From Escherichia phage Ec_Makalu_003: a stretch of 64,000 bases of DNA. Each line of letters starts with the position of its first letter. Position 1 is the first letter of the stretch. Shown piece by piece: positions 9,440-29,086 of the stretch. The notes under the pieces were generated by a model. It was not told the origin of the DNA, made no database searches, and was given only the letters and a program-made list of their open reading frames with translations. A program made the translations under genes and the position numbers. The stretch lies in the sequence record MN882349.1. One strand, written 5' to 3'.

Positions 9440-10069
9440 TCAAAGAATTTTAAGGAAACTGGATAGACCTGATAATGAATATACACCAGATTCCCCGCAT
9501 TCGCATTTGATCGGTACTGCCAGCGTGATTTGATTTCTTGTTAGCTCGTCGATCACTTCTTCCACTTTATCCGTGGTAAGCATATCCAGCACGCGGTCAA
9601 AGTCCTGTGCGTTCAGGTCGTCTATATTGAATTGCTGATCGCCGATCACGATATATTCGATACATGCAATTACCATCTGCATAATATCAACATCTTCTGT
9701 AAACTTAGGTTGACGAAACTTGATTTTTACTTGTCCTAAGTCCAGAATATACGGTTCAACTTCTGGTATCTGTGTGCGTGAAACATCAAGAGAATATACT
9801 TTCTCTTTATTACATACACCACACACCCAAGTAGCATCAATTTTCATCTTATTGAGGCTGTGACACCATAAGAGAAGAAAAATATATTCTGCTTCGCATT
9901 TCTCTAGCTCTAATGCATTGATTCCCGTACATTCGTATATAATCTCTATAACAACATCTGACAGCTTGCCAGTCTCTTTTGCTGCTACCAGTTTTTGAAA
10001 TTCGCCGAAGGTGAAAGCACGGGCGTGTATCAACTTTTCGCCTATTTGGATCTTGAAAAAGTATTGCAT
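9440..10069 (-). CDS. 26: baseplate hub protein gp26
   Basis: 209 aa ORF directly upstream of gene 25, divergent from gene 51 as in T4. Confidence 0.7.
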   Translation of the reverse strand: MQYFFKIQIGEKLIHARAFTFGEFQKLVAAKETGKLSDVVIEIIYECTGINALELEKCEAEYIFLLLWCHSLNKMKIDATWVCGVCNKEKVYSLDVSRTQIPEVEPYILDLGQVKIKFRQPKFTEDVDIMQMVIACIEYIVIGDQQFNIDDLNAQDFDRVLDMLTTDKVEEVIDELTRNQITLAVPIKCECGESGVYSLSGLSSFLKIL

Positions 10070-10111
10070 AATAAAACACCCTTTATAAACACATAGAATT
10101 ATTTAGTATTT

Positions 10112-10119
10112 TATAAATA
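10112..10119 (+). promoter_or_regulatory. late promoter TATAAATA for gene 51
   Basis: Exact TATAAATA 21 bp upstream of the ATG at 10140. Confidence 0.65.
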
Positions 10120-10139
10120 CCCGAAAGGGGGATTATACC

Positions 10140-10910
10140 ATGAATATTATCCGAATAAAACTACCGGAAGGTGTACAGCGATTTAAACCTTTCACGGTTA
10201 AAGATTACAGAGATTTCCTTCTGGTGTCAACTGAAATTAAGATGAATCCAGAAGAAGAACAAACTATCCTGGATGAGCTACTAGAAGAAATATACCCAGA
10301 CGTAGACCCTGCATTTCGTGAATATATTTTCCTGAACGTTTTTACTAGCTCAATAGGTAAAACAAAGATACCGCTTTGCTTTACTTGCCCGACTTGCAAC
10401 AAAGAAAGAAAAATGTTGCTCAACTTACAGGTCGAAGCACTAAAACCAATCGTTCTGGAGGCCGCAGGGCTTAAAATAACTTTCCGGTATGTGAAACCAT
10501 CAACCGACTATGCAAAAACGTTTCTAGATGCGATAGAGCGTGTATCTGATGGTGTTAATGATTATCTGTGGACTGAATTGCCGGAAGACGTTCGAGATCA
10601 GGTTATTGATTCAATCTCATTTGCTGAATTTGAAGAAGTTGTTAAGCAGATGCACACGATCAAGATCGAACAAAAGATATCTTGTTGTGAAAGTCATGAC
10701 CTAAAATACATAGGTCTTCTTCCATTATTCAAATTGTTGTTGAATCCAGATGAGTTATTCATCTTTTATCGAATAAACCATCTATTGGCAAAATCAAATT
10801 ATTCTATCAGTGATCTTATGGACATGTTACCCGTCGAGAGAAACATTGCACTGACACTGGTCGAGAAAGACGTAAAAGAGGCAAACAATGCAAAGAACGG
10901 GGTTTCCTAA
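10140..10910 (+). CDS. 51: baseplate hub assembly protein gp51
   Basis: 256 aa ORF at the T4 gene 51 position; shares CxxC-NKE and EYIFL segments with gp26. Confidence 0.7.
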   Translation: MNIIRIKLPEGVQRFKPFTVKDYRDFLLVSTEIKMNPEEEQTILDELLEEIYPDVDPAFREYIFLNVFTSSIGKTKIPLCFTCPTCNKERKMLLNLQVEALKPIVLEAAGLKITFRYVKPSTDYAKTFLDAIERVSDGVNDYLWTELPEDVRDQVIDSISFAEFEEVVKQMHTIKIEQKISCCESHDLKYIGLLPLFKLLLNPDELFIFYRINHLLAKSNYSISDLMDMLPVERNIALTLVEKDVKEANNAKNGVS

Positions 10911-20824: not shown

Positions 20825-21157
20825 TTATAGTCTCCTGAATGGATCATCACGTAAATCAATATCTTTTAAGAACTCATCCCATGAATGGCGGATAATGTTC
20901 TTAATTCTCCAGATAAGCGCAGGGATTGAACGCTCTCCCATCTGGAAGTAAGGATCATATGATCCATATGCCCAATATGCTACTACAATTCCACAATCGG
21001 CGCAATAATATTCTATTTCACTTGCTGGCGACCAAAGTCCATCAATATGATCACGGATCTTGCTTTCGATGTTATGGCTATGGCAATCAGGGCAACGGAT
21101 GCAATGACCTTGTTTATCGTAATTTGACGTTAGCGAATACTTAAACAATCTCATCAT
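20825..21157 (-). CDS. Cys/His-rich zinc-finger protein, possible HNH-like nuclease
   Basis: CIRCPDCHSHN...RDHIDG...CADCG: two CxxC pairs flanking His/Asp residues. Confidence 0.45.
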   Translation of the reverse strand: MMRLFKYSLTSNYDKQGHCIRCPDCHSHNIESKIRDHIDGLWSPASEIEYYCADCGIVVAYWAYGSYDPYFQMGERSIPALIWRIKNIIRHSWDEFLKDIDLRDDPFRRL

Positions 21158-21870
21158 AGATCCTTATTGGCTTCAAATACTGCCTTTGCGAATCCTCGCG
21201 GGGTAAGTGACCTGATAGTCTTTGTTCTGGTTCCTTTCCCGCCTAGCTTAGAATGCTGTTTACTGTACCCTTTATTAATCTGCAACGGTTTCTTTTCTGG
21301 CATTATAAAGCCTTGTCCGGTCCATAAGCAAGTCTTTTTCGGGTACATATCACGGGCGGCAATATACTCAGGAAACGTAGGATGCTTATCATCTTCCGGC
21401 AAATAACCGCCATATTCCCACGGATGGAACATGTAATCAGGCTTACGCCACATGCTAGAGATAACGCTTACAGGATTCTCTATCATGTAGGGAACTCCTA
21501 GCCATTCACCCAAATAAGCGGTTATTTTAGCTGCCCTTACATCATGAACTTGAATTAATGGTCCTTGTTCTCGTTTCTTTCGTTCAAAGTGCGCAGCGCC
21601 ACTAACAGCTAAATTGGTGCATGGTGGGAATGCAAAGATAATATCCGGTTTCCCCCATTCAAGGTCCATTGCTCTTTCCAGCCAATTTAAATCAATCCAT
21701 GTGTTTACATATGTAATGTTTGGATGTTCAAATCTGGTATTATATTTTTTGTATGTACCGTGGTCGCCATCGTCAGCATTAAAGCAGATCACCTTATGAC
21801 CTGCTTTAGCCCATTCTAACCCCATTATCCCCGATCCGTCAAAGTTGCAGAATATTAATTTTTGTTTCAT
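21154..21870 (-). CDS. DNA (cytosine-5)-methyltransferase-like protein (compact, 238 aa)
   Basis: Motif I-like LIFCNFDGSGIMG, motif IV-like FAFPPCTNLAVSG (PC catalytic dipeptide), motif VI-like MIENP, C-terminal FAKAVF. Confidence 0.55.
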   Translation of the reverse strand: MKQKLIFCNFDGSGIMGLEWAKAGHKVICFNADDGDHGTYKKYNTRFEHPNITYVNTWIDLNWLERAMDLEWGKPDIIFAFPPCTNLAVSGAAHFERKKREQGPLIQVHDVRAAKITAYLGEWLGVPYMIENPVSVISSMWRKPDYMFHPWEYGGYLPEDDKHPTFPEYIAARDMYPKKTCLWTGQGFIMPEKKPLQINKGYSKQHSKLGGKGTRTKTIRSLTPRGFAKAVFEANKDL

Positions 21871-22429: not shown

Positions 22430-22443
22430 CACTTTTTATAAAA

Positions 22444-22611
22444 TTATTTGTTAATTTCTGGTGCGTTGCTAGGATAGTAACCTTCTTTAACTCCGAGGTA
22501 TTTTGCAACCATCCCTACAATCTTCTGTGCTACTACAATGTCAAATTTCAGATAATCTTCGCCGTGGGTTTCAATGATATATGCTTCACATGCTGCTTTA
22601 GTCTCGAACAT
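22444..22611 (-). CDS. small hypothetical protein (55 aa), copy 1 of a duplicated gene
   Basis: MFETKAACEAYIIETHGEDYLKFDIVVAQK..., about 87 percent aa identity to 25726-25893. Confidence 0.6.
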   Translation of the reverse strand: MFETKAACEAYIIETHGEDYLKFDIVVAQKIVGMVAKYLGVKEGYYPSNAPEINK

Positions 22612-22644
22612 TTTGATTCTCCTATTTCGTTTCGGTATGTGTGT

Positions 22645-22673
22645 ATTATAGGGGATCTCCCGATCCCCGTCAA
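22645..22673 (-). promoter_or_regulatory. early promoter cassette (TTGACG, GGGGATC-containing spacer, TATAAT)
   Basis: Same cassette type as 20269-20297. Confidence 0.65.
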
Positions 22674-22687
22674 CAACTTTTTTAAAA

Positions 22688-23378: not shown

Positions 23379-23435
23379 TGCCTTTTTTAAAATTTTATGC
23401 AATAAAAAAGCCGACACTAAGGTCGGCTAATAAAA

Positions 23436-23744
23436 TCATTTAGACAAATAATCATTCAGTGCAATCCGGTCGGCATGTTCCGGCGTTACATCAATCGCAA
23501 TCACTTTAACGCGTGCTTTCTTGCGACCTGGGTTTTCTCGTAACCAGTGCTCATGACCGTGAACATTTTTATACTGCGATGCTTCTTCGAAGGTACGGAT
23601 CGGACCAGGGTAATCAGCGTAAAGGATCTCTAGGTCATCGGTGATGTAAAAATATACGTTGTAATTACTGTTCTCTAGCTTAAGCAGAGACTTTCGGAAC
23701 ATTGGGAGATTTTCGCGGGTAAATTCAAAAGTAATATCTTTCAT
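23436..23744 (-). CDS. small protein, member 1 of HxHW paralog family
   Basis: Start at MKDITFEF with GAGGA RBS; motifs VYFYITDD...HGHEHW...VIAIDV. Confidence 0.6.
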   Translation of the reverse strand: MKDITFEFTRENLPMFRKSLLKLENSNYNVYFYITDDLEILYADYPGPIRTFEEASQYKNVHGHEHWLRENPGRKKARVKVIAIDVTPEHADRIALNDYLSK

Positions 23745-23793
23745 AGTATTATCCTCAATAGTTGGATGAAAAGGGGGCTTAACGCCCCATATA

Positions 23794-24081
23794 TTAAAAC
23801 AGTCCTTCCTGTACACCGTAGTAGAGTTCGTCGCTGATAATTTCATTAATGCGACGGTGTGCATATTCCTGATTTGCGAAGTTGTCAGCAAGTTCTACTT
23901 TAGTTTCACCGTCATGAGTCCATTTAGTGATAACTTTACCATCTGCAAATTTGAAGTTGAACTCTTTAGCTACTGCATCGCGTACCAGACGTGCGAACTT
24001 GTTGTTACGGATTGCATTATCGGTTTCGTGTGCAGCGTGAGCAAATTTGTTAACTTTCAGAGTGATAGTGATGTATGCCAT
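23794..24081 (-). CDS. hypothetical protein (95 aa)
   Basis: ORF with AGGAGAATCAA RBS behind promoter cassette. Confidence 0.6.
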   Translation of the reverse strand: MAYITITLKVNKFAHAAHETDNAIRNNKFARLVRDAVAKEFNFKFADGKVITKWTHDGETKVELADNFANQEYAHRRINEIISDELYYGVQEGLF

Positions 24082-24127
24082 AATTTGATTCTCCTAGTTA
24101 GAAAGTGTATCTCGTTTCGATGGGTGT

Positions 24128-24156
24128 ATTATGCTATACACCCGATCTTATGTCAA
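24128..24156 (-). promoter_or_regulatory. early promoter cassette (TTGACA-17-CATAAT)
   Basis: Minus-strand consensus elements. Confidence 0.65.
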
Positions 24157-24163
24157 CACTTTT

Positions 24164-24442
24164 TTATAAAATAATTTTTTGATATTTTTCTATGATGTTT
24201 GTGTAATCCACATCAACCGCTATCACCGTTGCTTCGAATCCACCGTTTAGCCAATGGCTATGGTCATGATCGTGAAAGAAACCAAGACCAGTACGAAGAC
24301 CTTCTTTATATTCGGCGCGTACATTTAGATCATCATCGATAAACAGATAAAACCATGAATTTTTACTAGGATTGATGATACAACCTTTCAGATTAGGGAG
24401 AATATCACGACTAAGAATAAACTTATCACCTACTTTGAACAT
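24164..24442 (-). CDS. small protein, member 2 of HxHW paralog family
   Basis: Start MFKVGDKF with GAGGA RBS; motifs FYLFIDDD...HDHSHW...VIAVDV. Confidence 0.6.
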   Translation of the reverse strand: MFKVGDKFILSRDILPNLKGCIINPSKNSWFYLFIDDDLNVRAEYKEGLRTGLGFFHDHDHSHWLNGGFEATVIAVDVDYTNIIEKYQKIIL

Positions 24443-24446
24443 AATA

Positions 24447-24767
24447 TTAGTCCTCACTTATAAGGTCAAACCAATTGTTTTTCGCATAATGCTTAATGCG
24501 TGCTTGATCTGCTTCCGCTGGTGATAGATTCCATGCAACCACTACAACTTCTGACGCGTCGTCATCCGTTTCTGATACCCAATGATTGTGATTCATACAG
24601 TTATTTGCGATCGAGTGAGCAAATGATTTCATCACTGGAGACGTATAATCATAGTAACGGATTTTCAGATTTTCATCAACATACAAGTAGATCGTATAAG
24701 GTTTATATTCAGTAACCAGTAACAGACAGTTACGCAATTCTGGGAAAATCTTTTTAGTTAATTTCAT
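24447..24767 (-). CDS. small protein, member 3 of HxHW paralog family
   Basis: Start MKLTKKIF with GAGGAT RBS; motifs IYLYVDEN...NHNHW...VVVVAWN. Confidence 0.55.
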   Translation of the reverse strand: MKLTKKIFPELRNCLLLVTEYKPYTIYLYVDENLKIRYYDYTSPVMKSFAHSIANNCMNHNHWVSETDDDASEVVVVAWNLSPAEADQARIKHYAKNNWFDLISED

Positions 24768-24768
24768 T

Positions 24769-24987
24769 TTATAATCCTCGGTCGCGGCTATAGTACACGG
24801 TACGCCATACAATTTCATGTTTCGTGTCGCTCCAGCACACGATCTCATTTACTCTTAAATCTTTGTTATCAACAAAAGATGAACATTGTGACGCTTCTTT
24901 CATCATTTTATCTGCTGTTTTCTCATCAAATACAGCACAGATTTCTTTATACACTCGATAATCTTTGAATTGACTCTGGATACCCAT
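24769..24987 (-). CDS. small hypothetical protein, tandem paralog of 24947-25204
   Basis: SQFKDYRVYKEICAVFDEKTADKMMKEASQC versus SKFKDYKAYQQILRVYDAEFAEKMMEDASKC. Confidence 0.5.
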   Translation of the reverse strand: MGIQSQFKDYRVYKEICAVFDEKTADKMMKEASQCSSFVDNKDLRVNEIVCWSDTKHEIVWRTVYYSRDRGL

Positions 24988-25204
24988 AATTAACACCATT
25001 CCAACCAATTGTTTTTGAGAAAACGTTTATCCACTGTTGAGTGTAGCATGTTTCTTTCCATGATACAATACGAGTAGAATAATGGTTTTTGTTTCCAGAA
25101 AAGGACGGGCATTTTGATGCATCTTCCATCATCTTTTCGGCGAACTCCGCGTCATATACCCGCAGGATCTGTTGATATGCTTTATAATCTTTAAATTTGC
25201 TCAT
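24947..25204 (-). CDS. small hypothetical protein, tandem paralog of 24769-24987
   Basis: 85 aa ORF; 3' end overlaps the start of its paralog. Confidence 0.5.
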   Translation of the reverse strand: MSKFKDYKAYQQILRVYDAEFAEKMMEDASKCPSFSGNKNHYSTRIVSWKETCYTQQWINVFSKTIGWNGVNYGYPESIQRLSSV

Positions 25205-25469
25205 AATTGTTAACTACCTTATCAGCTTCTTTTATTGTTTTTACATCAACTGCGATAATCCGTAAAGGTTCGTCGAAGGTCCACCAGTGGTCATGAATAT
25301 CAGCTTGTGATTTATCACCAAAGGAATCACGAATATCATTTTTACATTTATAGCTAATATGGCCTTCATAGTCAACATAAAGGTAATTATCGAAAATCGG
25401 AGTTTTTAAGATCATACCGAAAAATCTTTCTTTGTGTGTCTTATCAAGTGTTGCAGTAATTCGCATCAT
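25191..25469 (-). CDS. small protein, member 4 of HxHW paralog family
   Basis: AAGAGGA RBS; motifs YLYVDYEG...IHDHWW...IIAVDV. Confidence 0.6.
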   Translation of the reverse strand: MMRITATLDKTHKERFFGMILKTPIFDNYLYVDYEGHISYKCKNDIRDSFGDKSQADIHDHWWTFDEPLRIIAVDVKTIKEADKVVNNYEQI

Positions 25470-25481
25470 AATATATTCCTC

Positions 25482-25661
25482 TTAGAAAGGGATGGTCATT
25501 TCTTGAGCTTGTACATTCTCGTTAGGATTAAACTTCATCCAACCGATATTGTCTACCAGCATATGTACATTTTTATCATATCCTACGTGAGTAGTCAACA
25601 CTAAATGTGCTTTACCTTCAACGATGATTTCCATGTACTTCTGAACTTCGATAGCTTTCAT
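25482..25661 (-). CDS. small hypothetical protein (59 aa)
   Basis: ATG with GGAGAATCAA RBS behind promoter cassette 25694-25722. Confidence 0.5.
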   Translation of the reverse strand: MKAIEVQKYMEIIVEGKAHLVLTTHVGYDKNVHMLVDNIGWMKFNPNENVQAQEMTIPF

Positions 25662-25693
25662 TTTGATTCTCCGTTTGTTGTCTTGATGGGAGT

Positions 25694-25722
25694 ATCTTAC
25701 TACTCCCTTTAATCATTGTCAA
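25694..25722 (-). promoter_or_regulatory. early promoter cassette (TTGACA-17-TAAGAT)
   Basis: Minus-strand elements; spacer contains GGGAGTAG...ACTCCC-like palindrome. Confidence 0.6.
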
Positions 25723-25725
25723 CTA

Positions 25726-25893
25726 TTATTTGTTAATTTCTGGTGCGTTGCTCGGATAGTAACCTTCTTTAACACCCAGATATTTTGCAACCATTCCGGT
25801 GATCTTCTGTGCTACTACGATATCGAATTTCAGGTAGTCTTCACCGTGGTTTGCTACAATGTATGCTTCGCATTCTGCTTTAGTCTGGAACAT
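25726..25893 (-). CDS. small hypothetical protein (55 aa), copy 2 of a duplicated gene
   Basis: MFQTKAECEAYIVANHGEDYLKFDIVVAQK...; about 85 percent nt identity with 22444-22611. Confidence 0.6.
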   Translation of the reverse strand: MFQTKAECEAYIVANHGEDYLKFDIVVAQKITGMVAKYLGVKEGYYPSNAPEINK

Positions 25894-25927
25894 TTTTGAT
25901 TCTCCTATATCTCGTTGGTATGTGTGC

Positions 25928-25956
25928 ATTATAGGGGATCACCGATCCCCTGTCAA
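25928..25956 (-). promoter_or_regulatory. early promoter cassette with palindromic spacer GGGGATCACCGATCCCC
   Basis: TTGACA-17-TATAAT on minus strand. Confidence 0.7.
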
Positions 25957-25961
25957 CAACT

Positions 25962-26255
25962 TTATAATGCTTTATACGCGTATTTCATAAATTTGTCTGC
26001 CACTTCATTGGCATGTTCAGATTCTACGCCTGATTCGAGAACAATAGCTAGGTCGGTTTCGTCATTCCCGCCGTACCAATGATTTGATGTTCGATTTTTT
26101 TCAATTGGAAATTGGTCACTTTTATCTGTGCGACAAAATACATCTAAATGCTCGTCGATGTAAAAGATCCAATCTTCATAAAGAATAACGGTATTAGCAA
26201 GATTTTTATTGCCTTCAACGAAAGGTTCCGCGACAAATAGCTTAGTTTGTTCCAT
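25962..26255 (-). CDS. small protein, member 5 of HxHW paralog family (divergent)
   Basis: Start MEQTKLF with GAGGAA RBS; motifs IFYIDEHLD...SNHWYG...AIVLESGV. Confidence 0.5.
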   Translation of the reverse strand: MEQTKLFVAEPFVEGNKNLANTVILYEDWIFYIDEHLDVFCRTDKSDQFPIEKNRTSNHWYGGNDETDLAIVLESGVESEHANEVADKFMKYAYKAL

Positions 26256-26271
26256 AGTAATTTCCTCAAAA

Positions 26272-26463
26272 TTATACAGTTTCGTAAACTTCCCAATGTT
26301 CAGCGCCAACACGCTTAACGAAAAGGTTTTCTTTGATGTTATTCATAAACGTCTGGATGGATTTAATGCGGTTTGAAGGTTTCCATTCTTCGTTGGCATT
26401 GCGTCGATACATCATAACATTACCAGTTCGCTTATATTCAGCAACCATTTTAAGACCACACAT
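26272..26463 (-). CDS. hypothetical protein (63 aa)
   Basis: ATG with GAGGATAAT RBS. Confidence 0.55.
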   Translation of the reverse strand: MCGLKMVAEYKRTGNVMMYRRNANEEWKPSNRIKSIQTFMNNIKENLFVKRVGAEHWEVYETV

Positions 26464-26520
26464 AATATTATCCTCAATTTGTGGGAGAGTATTACCCCTC
26501 CCAATGATTGTTATGTTATA

Positions 26521-26841
26521 TCACACAAAATGGCGTGTCAATGCTTCTTTTGCGGTTCCGCTAAGACTTTCAATCTCGCCTGGCATAACATCAACCGCCA
26601 GAACTTCTACAACATCTTCGGACCCTAACCAGTGAGTATGGCCTTTGTAGAACTTGATAACCAGACCACCTTCCTCGTCCCATTTAACGCTATCGCTAGC
26701 CCACCACACATCACCGTCGATAAAGTTGATGTAAAGCACACTACGCCACATTGAATTAATTACTTTCAATACTGCGCCTTTCATCTCTTCCACGGTATGG
26801 TCTTCCATTTTGAAGACCTCACCTACCTGAACTTTTGCCAT
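26521..26841 (-). CDS. small protein, member 6 of HxHW paralog family
   Basis: Motifs LYINFIDGD...GHTHW...VLAVDV. Confidence 0.6.
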   Translation of the reverse strand: MAKVQVGEVFKMEDHTVEEMKGAVLKVINSMWRSVLYINFIDGDVWWASDSVKWDEEGGLVIKFYKGHTHWLGSEDVVEVLAVDVMPGEIESLSGTAKEALTRHFV

Positions 26842-26858: not shown

Positions 26859-27038
26859 TTACATAACAATCACGCCAGCCGTTGAAAGTTGATGTTTCAA
26901 CTGAGCATTTTCTGCTACTGTCAAATCAATGATTTCTTGTGACGCTGCAATCATATAACCATTGGTGATATTGTTTTGCATCAGTTCAATGGTTTCTTCG
27001 TTGTAGCGGATTTTAGCGATGATTTCGTTGAAGTTCAT
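26859..27038 (-). CDS. small hypothetical protein (59 aa)
   Basis: Start MNFNEIIAK with AGGAGAATCAA RBS; the track ORF start lies in the translated leader. Confidence 0.55.
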   Translation of the reverse strand: MNFNEIIAKIRYNEETIELMQNNITNGYMIAASQEIIDLTVAENAQLKHQLSTAGVIVM

Positions 27039-27072: not shown

Positions 27073-27101
27073 AGTATAGGGGATCGCCGATCCCCTGTCA
27101 A
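27073..27101 (-). promoter_or_regulatory. early promoter cassette with palindromic spacer GGGGATCGCCGATCCCC
   Basis: TTGACA-17-TATACT on minus strand; near-identical to the cassette at 20269-20297. Confidence 0.7.
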
Positions 27102-27114
27102 CAACTTTTTTGAA

Positions 27115-27591
27115 TTATTTTTCTTGATGCTCGCGCTCGTACTTTTCGAAATAAAATTCTACTGGCTGATCGTGGATTGAAAGCAAGCCAAAGCGTTTAG
27201 CCGCACGTAATCCCATGTTACGTTGAATGTACTTCTGGAAGTTCTCGCGTATACACTTACGCCAGTATTCTAAGCCCATACAGCTTTTGTAAAGATTGCA
27301 TTGCACACAAGCCGGATTCATGTTGTCAAGTATATCGTGCTCCGGTTTATGCATTCCTACAACCTTATACTTCCACGATCCATCATCATTACGGGCAATT
27401 CGTCCATTTTCATCATAGACTACTTTTGAGCGTCGCAATACTGGTTTGATGTGGTCTGCGTGCCAGCGATCCCCTAGTTCCTCGCCACAATAGGCACAAC
27501 GCCCACCGTATTTCATTTTCAGGATCTGGCGTTGCTCTTTCTTTGACAATTTTTTAGGTTTAGGGGCTTTCGCCCCTTCATTATCACACAT
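27115..27591 (-). CDS. HNH endonuclease
   Basis: CAYCG...HADHIKP...NMNPACVQCN: canonical HNH CxxC / H-x-DH / N / CxxC arrangement; start overlaps the ligase stop. Confidence 0.8.
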   Translation of the reverse strand: MCDNEGAKAPKPKKLSKKEQRQILKMKYGGRCAYCGEELGDRWHADHIKPVLRRSKVVYDENGRIARNDDGSWKYKVVGMHKPEHDILDNMNPACVQCNLYKSCMGLEYWRKCIRENFQKYIQRNMGLRAAKRFGLLSIHDQPVEFYFEKYEREHQEK

Positions 27592-29086
27592 CGAATACCT
27601 CTTTTACTGTATTTGCAGTGGTCTTGTCGTAGCGAATACGTTTGATGATTGGGAGAAATAAAGAGAACTCCGGTTCATCTTCTTTACGTGATTTGCTGCG
27701 GATATATCCGTTGCATGTCATCTCAATGACTTTTCCGATCAGGTTATGACGGTCAGCCCATAACATTTCTCGGTCGAGTTCATTTCGACGATCGAACGGA
27801 ATTACACGTTCAATACCATCATCATCTTTTTCGGTTGTGGTGTCGGTCAATCCCGATCCGGTGTTAGTCGTCATTCGTCCGCACGCACTACGGACAGTAA
27901 AACCGCCTACCTTGTTAGGATCTTTACTATGCGGATATACATCAACAATTTCCGCGTCGAAGTCAATCACTTCTTTAAATTTAACCTGATCTTTACTGCG
28001 ACGATCTTCAAATACACCATGTAAATTTTTAAGGATAATACCTTCTAATCCCATGTTGACATAACGATGATATACTTCGCGAGCTTCATCGATATTGTTA
28101 ACTACAGTGTTTTCGATTATCTGAACACGAGGATCGTTAAGTTCTTCAACAATCTGTTTTAGTTCTTCGAATCGATCTTTATATTGCTTCGTTGCTTTCT
28201 CGTTTCCGTAATACACATCACGGTCGATAACATCCCAGACAGTGTAAACAATACATTGGGCTTCTTCTTTTGGAATAGTTCCTTTCAGTGATTTGTTGAG
28301 GATACCATTTCCGGTCTGACGGTCTGCAACAACGGATTCTTTCACTGCTTCCGCTACTGGCGTTAATGGCATTTCCTCTTCTTCAAATATCCATGATAGA
28401 GTACCATCATAAACGCTCTCAACGAAGTTCTGCGCTGGTGTTTGAGAAAGGGTAGGCATATATACCAACTCACCATCTAAAACAATTCCACGGCCTCGTA
28501 GACGCTCTAAAACAGCAAACAAATCATCCAGCCCCTGATAGGTATTACCTGAACGGGTATAGATTGCTAATGTTTCTCCGTCAATATCAGCCATACCACG
28601 AGCGCCATCGCTTTTAAGTTGTGCATACGCCGGATATTTGATATTGGCAATAGTCTTATCAGAACATGACGATGCAAGGTGGCACGGCTGCTGAGGAATC
28701 AGCTTCTTCCATACCTTGTTTGCGGTGGTAGCGGAACAACCGCATTCCAGATCACGATTCAGGACCATCATTGCAACTTTAGCATCATCTTCTGACAAGC
28801 AAGTCAGAGTATCGGTAACTAGCTGTAATGCAGCATTACCAGTTACTTGACGCGTGGCAAGTTTATTTTTAAAGACCTGTAATGCACCGGATAAAGACAA
28901 TACAGACGAATAGCGAGACGGTTTATCGTATTTCTTTACGCCAAACGTAACCTGCTTGCAATATGCCAGATAAAAGCATTCTTTCAGCGTTTCATTGCTT
29001 GCAGATTCTTTCAGGATCTTTTCTTTCAGCGATGTTTTGTCAGTGGCTGCAAGCTGATTAATGATATTAAGAATTGACATTTTCAC
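27584..29086 (-). CDS. 30: ATP-dependent DNA ligase gp30
   Basis: 500 aa, alignable to T4 DNA ligase (GNAA, DGELVY, GIILKN, KFKEVID segments). Confidence 0.92.
   Translation of the reverse strand: MKMSILNIINQLAATDKTSLKEKILKESASNETLKECFYLAYCKQVTFGVKKYDKPSRYSSVLSLSGALQVFKNKLATRQVTGNAALQLVTDTLTCLSEDDAKVAMMVLNRDLECGCSATTANKVWKKLIPQQPCHLASSCSDKTIANIKYPAYAQLKSDGARGMADIDGETLAIYTRSGNTYQGLDDLFAVLERLRGRGIVLDGELVYMPTLSQTPAQNFVESVYDGTLSWIFEEEEMPLTPVAEAVKESVVADRQTGNGILNKSLKGTIPKEEAQCIVYTVWDVIDRDVYYGNEKATKQYKDRFEELKQIVEELNDPRVQIIENTVVNNIDEAREVYHRYVNMGLEGIILKNLHGVFEDRRSKDQVKFKEVIDFDAEIVDVYPHSKDPNKVGGFTVRSACGRMTTNTGSGLTDTTTEKDDDGIERVIPFDRRNELDREMLWADRHNLIGKVIEMTCNGYIRSKSRKEDEPEFSLFLPIIKRIRYDKTTANTVKEVFDV

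Follow-up and report, generated by a model that had tools for sequence, protein, structure and literature searches.

What are the six small genes that lie between positions 23436 and 26841 of the stretch of Escherichia phage Ec_Makalu_003 DNA analysed here (MN882349.1), are they copies of one another, and what might they do for the phage? T4-type phages carry hundreds of early ORFans, the roles of which are mostly obscure, and lineage-specific paralogous sets of ORFans in the hyperplastic regions of these phages are a known kind of thing. The whole stretch, to which we refer as the window, is 64,000 nucleotides long; between 22000 and 28000 it is 93-99% identical to 58 Krischvirus genomes, including those of kaaroe, Ec_Makalu_001, RB49, phi1 and JSE, and by this sequence measure the window is a Krischvirus genome, that of an RB49-like T4-type coliphage. 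The initial annotation, made from the letters of the DNA, had proposed that six open reading frames (ORFs) in this region form a paralogous family with three shared motifs (Y-x-D, H-x-H-W and A-x-D-V), that they share one small fold with a possible metal site, and that they serve host takeover or anti-defence. As set out below, profile comparisons show the six ORFs to be functional paralogues of one ancestral gene, and several possible roles for them are weighed.

The ORFs are confirmed at the positions first given for them, and the strand, which had been left unstated, can be added: all six are on the minus strand, within the hyperplastic region that lies downstream of the genes for DNA ligase and an HNH endonuclease, in an array running toward alt. 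They are numbered m1 to m6 here in order of increasing window coordinate. The first, m1 (23436-23744; RB49 ORF197c), encodes 102 amino acids with the signature YFYITDD...HGHEHW...IAIDV and is the last gene of its predicted transcription unit. It is followed by m2 (24164-24442; ORF199c; 92 amino acids), which has the histidine-rich run HDHDHSHW, and by m3 (24447-24767; ORF200c; 106 amino acids), with YLYVDEN...NHNHW...VAWNL. Next come m4 (25191-25469; ORF203c; 92 amino acids) and m5 (25962-26255; ORF206c; 97 amino acids), the latter being the most divergent member and very acidic, and finally m6 (26521-26841; ORF208c; 106 amino acids), with LYINFIDGD...GHTHW...LAVDV. Their lengths equal those of the annotated coding sequences in the RB49 record, where all six are labelled 'hypothetical protein', and the ATG of every member has a GAGG or GAGGA ribosome-binding site 6-9 nt upstream. 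The m2 start lies 4 nt past the m3 stop, so translational coupling of this pair is probable. A scan of the window and of the rest of RB49 gave a copy number of exactly six per genome, all within the array, with no further family members elsewhere. The encoded proteins are soluble and mostly acidic, with net charges of -1 to -15 and rare neutral or basic members, and no cysteine clusters were found in them.

Homology between these proteins is only partly visible to pairwise comparison. With BLASTP, m1 and m3 match at an expectation value (E) of 8e-11, and m1, m2, m3 and m6 are joined at 1e-4 to 7e-3; the links of m4 are marginal, and none was found between m5 and the other members. Each member was nevertheless ranked first among the 601 six-frame ORFs of the window by a hidden Markov model (HMM) built with that member left out (E 3e-11 to 7e-3), the best non-member having an E of 0.04 or worse. 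Subfamily profiles enriched with orthologues were also compared with hhalign, which gave probabilities of 97.6% for the m5-type against the m1/m3-type, 96.3% for the m4-type, 95.7% for the m6-type and 95.0% for the m5-type against the m4-type, with E of 4e-8 to 3e-12; all three motifs were aligned in register. The subfamilies are further bridged by divergent members from metagenomes. The proposed family of six is thus supported for every member by the leave-one-out HMMs and hhalign, and the alignment and HMM-HMM comparison that had been suggested as its check found the motifs to be positionally conserved. What was already known is that these genes had been deposited as hypothetical and that their products are full-length members (E 1e-46 to 1e-72) of five PHROGs families of 'unknown function', namely phrog_9345 (m1 and m3, with weak cross-matches to 17255), phrog_17255 (m2), phrog_15972 (m4), phrog_15965 (m5) and phrog_16486 (m6). 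What is new is that these profile comparisons show the six ORFans to collapse into one superfamily, correcting a five-way split of the same proteins.

The three-motif description itself holds as a shared pattern in register, but it is idealised, and in its strict three-part form it is matched by m4 only. The H-x-H-W motif is kept in five of the six window members; the exception is m5, which has SNHW here, though most m5 orthologues have THNHW. A strict Y-x-D is present in m3, m4 and m5 only, the equivalent positions being YIT-D in m1, FID in m2 and YIN in m6, and A-x-D-V is found in m1, m2, m4 and m6, with AWNL in m3 and ESGV in m5. Across the complete RB49-type genome H.HW occurs in only five of 1612 six-frame ORFs, and all five are family members. 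Conservation was assessed over 29 diverse members, using m1 residue numbers, and the only invariant residues are H66 and W67. Y33 and H64 are each conserved in 93% of these sequences, V86 in 83% and A83 in 79%, and the other conserved columns are those of the hydrophobic core, a D/N at position 85 and A91-D92 at the start of a helix.

The family has a very narrow range. A profile search of 5.8 billion proteins returned close relatives only, on contigs as large as phage genomes, and a second profile search with a broadened alignment added no members. When 1.84 billion protein representatives were searched exhaustively with HMMER, 19 matches were returned, of which all that could be traced belong to Krischvirus or to uncultured sister phages. 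Among 50,697 phage records matches were found in Krischvirus only, the 185,579 bacterial and archaeal species genomes of the Genome Taxonomy Database (GTDB) gave no match, and scans of IMG/VR and of Joint Genome Institute (JGI) metagenomes gave Krischvirus-like loci or nothing. These searches show the family to be confined to Krischvirus and a few uncultured sister phages. One such sister phage (L003), the ligase region of which is about 72% identical to that of Krischvirus at the nucleotide level, has two m5-type members between ligase and alt. In another (L002, a 2.1-kb Logan contig from SRR8048117) five family domains are present in four genes, in an order more compact than that of the window, and one of these genes (P0086; L002 823-1434) encodes a 203-amino-acid natural fusion of two family domains.

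Within Krischvirus the array keeps its content and order. All six members occur in the same order in seven genomes, with ratios of nonsynonymous to synonymous substitution rates (dN/dS) of 0.09-0.22, and in further isolate and metagenomic loci six members per locus is the rule. The exceptions are a frameshift-split m2 (L017, 2029-2418), a frameshift-split m5 (L019, 7700-8076) and a locus lacking m1 (L014, about 9650-10800); these irregularities reflect either the dispensability of individual copies or assembly errors. Because the six-member content and order recur in the seven genomes and the further loci, the array is, as judged from these comparisons, old and stably retained under purifying selection, though single copies can be lost. 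The members differ in diversity, with 38 clusters at 90% identity for m1, 22 each for m5 and m6, and two to three for m2 and m4, and orthologues vary mostly at the N-terminus and within the loop before H-x-H-W.

The earlier expectation of one shared small fold is borne out by the profile-profile results and by structure prediction. The AlphaFold2 (AF2) model of m1, made with a 16-sequence family alignment, has a predicted local distance difference test (pLDDT) score of 85 and a predicted template modelling (pTM) score of 0.79, and consists of strands (E) and helices (H) in the order E5-7, H13-16, E19-23, E29-34, E40-45, H52-56, E78-84 and H88-100. The m5 model (pLDDT 75, pTM 0.73) has the same order of elements, and models of relatives in BFVD match the m1 model with a Foldseek probability of 0.99-1.0. 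The predicted domain, of about 95 amino acids, would open with a short N-terminal strand and a three-strand beta-meander, of which the YLYIDxxL hairpin is a part; a variable loop with H-x-H-W at its end would lead on to a fifth strand (VLAxDV), and a C-terminal helix capped by PExAD would close the domain. In both models the H-x-H-W motif (62-67 in m1) is in the least confident loop, with pLDDT of 60-75. The Foldseek search of m1 against BFVD gave Krischvirus proteins only at an E of 1e-3 or better, and a sequence profile search of the Protein Data Bank (PDB) gave nothing below an E of 0.2; the predicted fold is without a significant PDB match. Searches of Pfam with the six proteins and 24 family members returned scattered noise only (PROCT, TTL, Tubulin and Cupin_2), all below the cut-offs, and the PADLOC models of defence components gave no match at E up to 1. 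Nor was sequence or fold similarity found to the solved anti-defence proteins Ocr, Arn, Acb2, Tad1/2 and the Acr proteins. A further known system set beside the family is Tis1 (PA14_01140; PDB 6ox6_B), the immunity protein of the (p)ppApp-synthetase effector Tas1 of a type VI secretion system.

When would these genes be expressed? The array is punctuated by repeated minus-strand elements made up of an AT-rich tract, TTGACA, a G/C stem-loop in or near a 17-nt spacer, a TATAAT-like -10 and a GGAGAATCAA leader, and by their sequence these elements are the promoter-early stem-loops (PeSLs) described for RB49 and phi1. The promoters that head the units match 10-12 of 12 sigma-70 consensus positions and have stem-loops. 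The first of five predicted units, all on the minus strand, would start from a PeSL-type early promoter at 27073-27101 (P27101; TTGACA-N17-TATACT, with a GGGGATC..GATCCCC stem-loop in the spacer), which would drive a 59-amino-acid ORF (26859-27038) and then m6. The second would start from a weaker sigma-70-like promoter with a stem-loop at 26513-26541 (P26541; TTGACA-N17-TAACAT), which overlaps the 3' end of m6, and would comprise a 63-amino-acid ORF (26272-26463) and m5. Directly after the m5 stop, PeSL206/205 (25928-25956), a consensus TTGACA-N17-TATAAT with a stem-loop, would end the m5 unit and drive the third, which holds ORF205c (25726-25893). The fourth and longest, from a promoter-like site with a stem-loop at 25694-25722 (P25722), would comprise a 59-amino-acid ORF (25482-25661), m4, ORF202c, ORF201c, m3 and m2. 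The fifth would start from a PeSL directly after the m2 stop (24128-24156; P24156) and hold ORF198c (23794-24081) and m1, ending at an intrinsic-terminator-like hairpin and T-run (23409-23428) 8 nt after the m1 stop. Family members are thus second or later genes of the predicted units, and mostly the last.

In a lacZ fusion the phi1/RB49 PeSL206/205 element yielded about 13,000 Miller units, the activity of a strong promoter, and PeSL stem-loops worked as terminators (PMC2839356). With sigma-70 promoters and stem-loops heading the units, and with this measured activity, the description of the locus as a region of small early genes stands, and early expression of the family members is inferred from the promoter sequences. 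At PeSL206/205 two allelic types of m5, with about 72% amino-acid identity (synonymous divergence, dS, about 0.55), are found in genomes otherwise about 95% identical (the window against L011, L012 and L013), which by sequence comparison mark a local divergence or recombination hotspot adjoining this element. The PeSL-flanked ORFan cassettes of the RB49 and phi1 hyperplastic regions (Arbiol et al. 2010, PMC2839356; Comeau et al. 2014, PMC4122927) share with the array the genome type, the region and the promoter and stem-loop motifs. The family members differ from them in being mostly distal in multi-gene units, not single PeSL-flanked ORFans, and in forming a six-gene set that is stably kept, not shuffled in and out; no mention of these ORFs or of paralogues was found in Arbiol et al. 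2010 (PMC2839356). A hidden two-gene cassette, with a second paralogous family upstream of each member, was also considered and rejected, since the small ORFs upstream are not related among themselves and are merely orthologous between phages.

What, then, could the six proteins do? A host-takeover or anti-defence role, as first suggested, is plausible from the context of the genes, and the reading that we favour, though we put it at somewhat under an even chance, is that they are specialised, stoichiometric early binders or inhibitors of host targets. Host sigma-70 RNA polymerase, starting at PeSL promoters, would transcribe the genes immediately after infection, in most cases as distal members of short operons, and the proteins would act stoichiometrically as binders or inhibitors and not as enzymes, each paralogue being directed at a different host (possibly defence) target. 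The conserved hydrophobic core would provide the scaffold and the H-W loop a shared contact or ligand site, with the variable N-terminus and the loop preceding H-x-H-W setting specificity. We favour binding because the domain is small and has no catalytic-domain signature, because what is conserved is mainly core residues and one loop motif, and because variation centres on the N-terminus and the adjacent loop; retention of all six copies argues for non-redundant roles. The working unit may be a dimer or hetero-dimer, as suggested by the natural two-domain fusion P0086 and by the coupled m3-m2 pair. The array itself would have arisen by old tandem duplication, with unrelated ORFans inserted later between the copies through PeSL-mediated shuffling.

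A bolder version of the same idea, which we regard as possible but doubtful, takes the family as a new fold deployed as a diversified early inhibitor set, in which each paralogue would neutralise a different target in host defence or physiology by way of a common His-Trp warhead loop, possibly with the assistance of a metal or nucleotide. If true, a single phage would carry six specificities of a new superfamily of anti-defence or host-takeover proteins. T-even phages have small early proteins with accessory, counter-defence and host-takeover roles (such as Arn, Dmd, IPI/IPII, AsiA and Acb2), which resemble the family in size class, in early expression, in lying between core genes within variable regions and in being restricted to a lineage. 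These proteins have no detectable sequence or fold relationship to it, however, and no homologue of the family is detectable outside Krischvirus and its sisters.

Several points weigh against the favoured account. The preference for a binder over an enzyme is based on the small size of the proteins and on an absence of evidence, and the invariant His-Trp pair, with a second histidine conserved in 93% of members, could just as well be the mark of a catalytic or metal site. Across the genus the array is stable and not variable, which is not the classic signature of an arms-race effector, and the assignment to early timing rests on promoter sequence. The AF2 alignments for m1 and m5 both held the whole family, so that the two models are not fully independent tests of a shared fold. 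Finally, in the literature on RB49 ORF names, on Krischvirus anti-defence and on accessory-gene screens, no mention of these ORFs, and no functional data on or characterisation of any member, was found.

Of the other explanations, the one that survives best, while still being unlikely, is that these are small metalloproteins, in which Zn, Ni or Fe would be bound within a monomer by H-x-H together with two Asp residues, one following the YLYID strand and one in A-x-D-V, or across an oligomer interface by the invariant histidine, the metal being structural or supporting a small hydrolytic activity. This follows the suggestion of metal binding in the initial annotation, and it draws on the invariance of H66 and the near-invariance of H64, on the histidine-rich run in m2, on the restriction of H.HW to the family within the genome and on a weak Cupin_2 match in one member (E 0.2). 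The metal site is nonetheless weakly supported, because only one histidine is invariant and the other proposed ligands vary: the first histidine is replaced in m5 of the window and in P0088 (NDNHW), both of which are under purifying selection, the Asp of 'Y-x-D' is D, T, N or H, and that of 'A-x-D-V' is D, N or G. The proteins also have no cysteine clusters and no Pfam metal domain, and the loop in question is the part of the models with the lowest pLDDT. In the established H-x-H metal-site families, the metallo-beta-lactamases (HxHxDH) and the cupins, the match is a partial overlap of 50 residues. The ligand set (HxHxDH, or HxH...E...H) and fold of these families were not found here, the other ligand positions are not conserved, and the family proteins, at about half the size, are far too small for either fold.

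Considerably less probable is the idea that the proteins are small-molecule sponges, whose oligomers would sequester nucleotide-type immune signals in the manner of Tad1, Tad2 or Acb2, with the His-Trp pair stacking on a base and the paralogues covering different ligands. The size class, solubility and early expression would fit, as would an invariant aromatic/His pair in a loop, and the natural tandem-domain fusion hints at oligomeric function; nothing in the data, however, points specifically to nucleotides, and known sponges are usually single-copy. We consider it just as improbable that the family consists of acidic DNA mimics or anti-restriction proteins that, like Ocr or Arn, protect phage DNA. 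The m5- and m6-type members are indeed strongly acidic (net charge -7 to -15), some with a DEDEDEE tail, and the early-expressed array has the ligase-HNH genes on one side and on the other an ORF that some records label a Dcm-type methyltransferase, but m1- and m3-type members are near neutral, P0091 is basic with an isoelectric point (pI) of 9.1, and the conserved features are a hydrophobic core and His-Trp instead of a patterned acidic surface. That there is no true family, the motifs being chance or compositional likeness among unrelated or even non-coding short ORFs, could find encouragement in the BLASTP results for m5 and m4 and in the five PHROGs families, but it has next to no chance of being right and is refuted by the leave-one-out HMMs that recover every member, by hhalign with the motifs in register, by the bridging metagenomic members and by purifying selection, conserved synteny and a ribosome-binding site at each start.

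The surroundings of the array offer some further observations. DNA ligase (gene 30; 27584-29086) lies upstream of it, and the HNH endonuclease gene (RB49 ORF212c; 27115-27591, minus strand; Pfam PF01844) shares 8 nt with the 3' end of the ligase gene and has an orthologue at the equivalent place in sister phage L003. Since the H-N-H-W of many family members brings such enzymes to mind, an HNH endonuclease identity for the family was considered as well, and rejected: HNH enzymes need a beta-beta-alpha-Me finger with a spaced H...N...H, whereas the three residues are consecutive in the loop here, and in contrast to the neighbouring gene no member has a Pfam HNH match. That neighbour is the one exception among the ORFs around the family, in which no other Pfam domains were found. 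Some records call a 238-amino-acid ORF (RB49 ORF189c; 21154-21870, minus strand) a Dcm or C-5 cytosine methyltransferase, but it has no Pfam match at E up to 0.01, and this annotation may be unreliable. A 110-amino-acid ORF (ORF188c; 20825-21157, minus strand) has two CxxC pairs (CIRCPDC...CADCG) and resembles a zinc ribbon; a weak TFIIB zinc-binding match was given for it by Nolan et al. 2006.

Two other sets of paralogues occur in and around the array. A 55-amino-acid ORFan is present twice on the minus strand, as ORF191c (22444-22611) and as ORF205c, with 89% amino-acid identity between the copies; a DNA repeat of 172 nt (86% identity), with flanks at 22443-22686 and 25725-25969, is duplicated with them, as is the PeSL alongside. 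From its sequence this pair looks like a recent PeSL-associated cassette duplication within the array region. Between m4 and m3, the adjacent and overlapping ORF201c (24769-24999) and ORF202c (24947-25204), both on the minus strand, are mutual paralogues with 43% identity (E 4e-16), and a homologue is located at 8709-8918 of L003.

For now this family is a well-defined unknown and not the discovery of a mechanism. It is a clean new example of a paralogous ORFan set, with an unmatched predicted fold, an unusual invariant motif and a very narrow phylogenetic range, and with six clones, one conserved loop and one array it makes a compact experimental target, which may yield new mechanisms of host interaction or counter-defence. 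For the biology of Krischvirus, an array that is fixed across the genus means that parts of a 'hyperplastic' region can escape rapid turnover.

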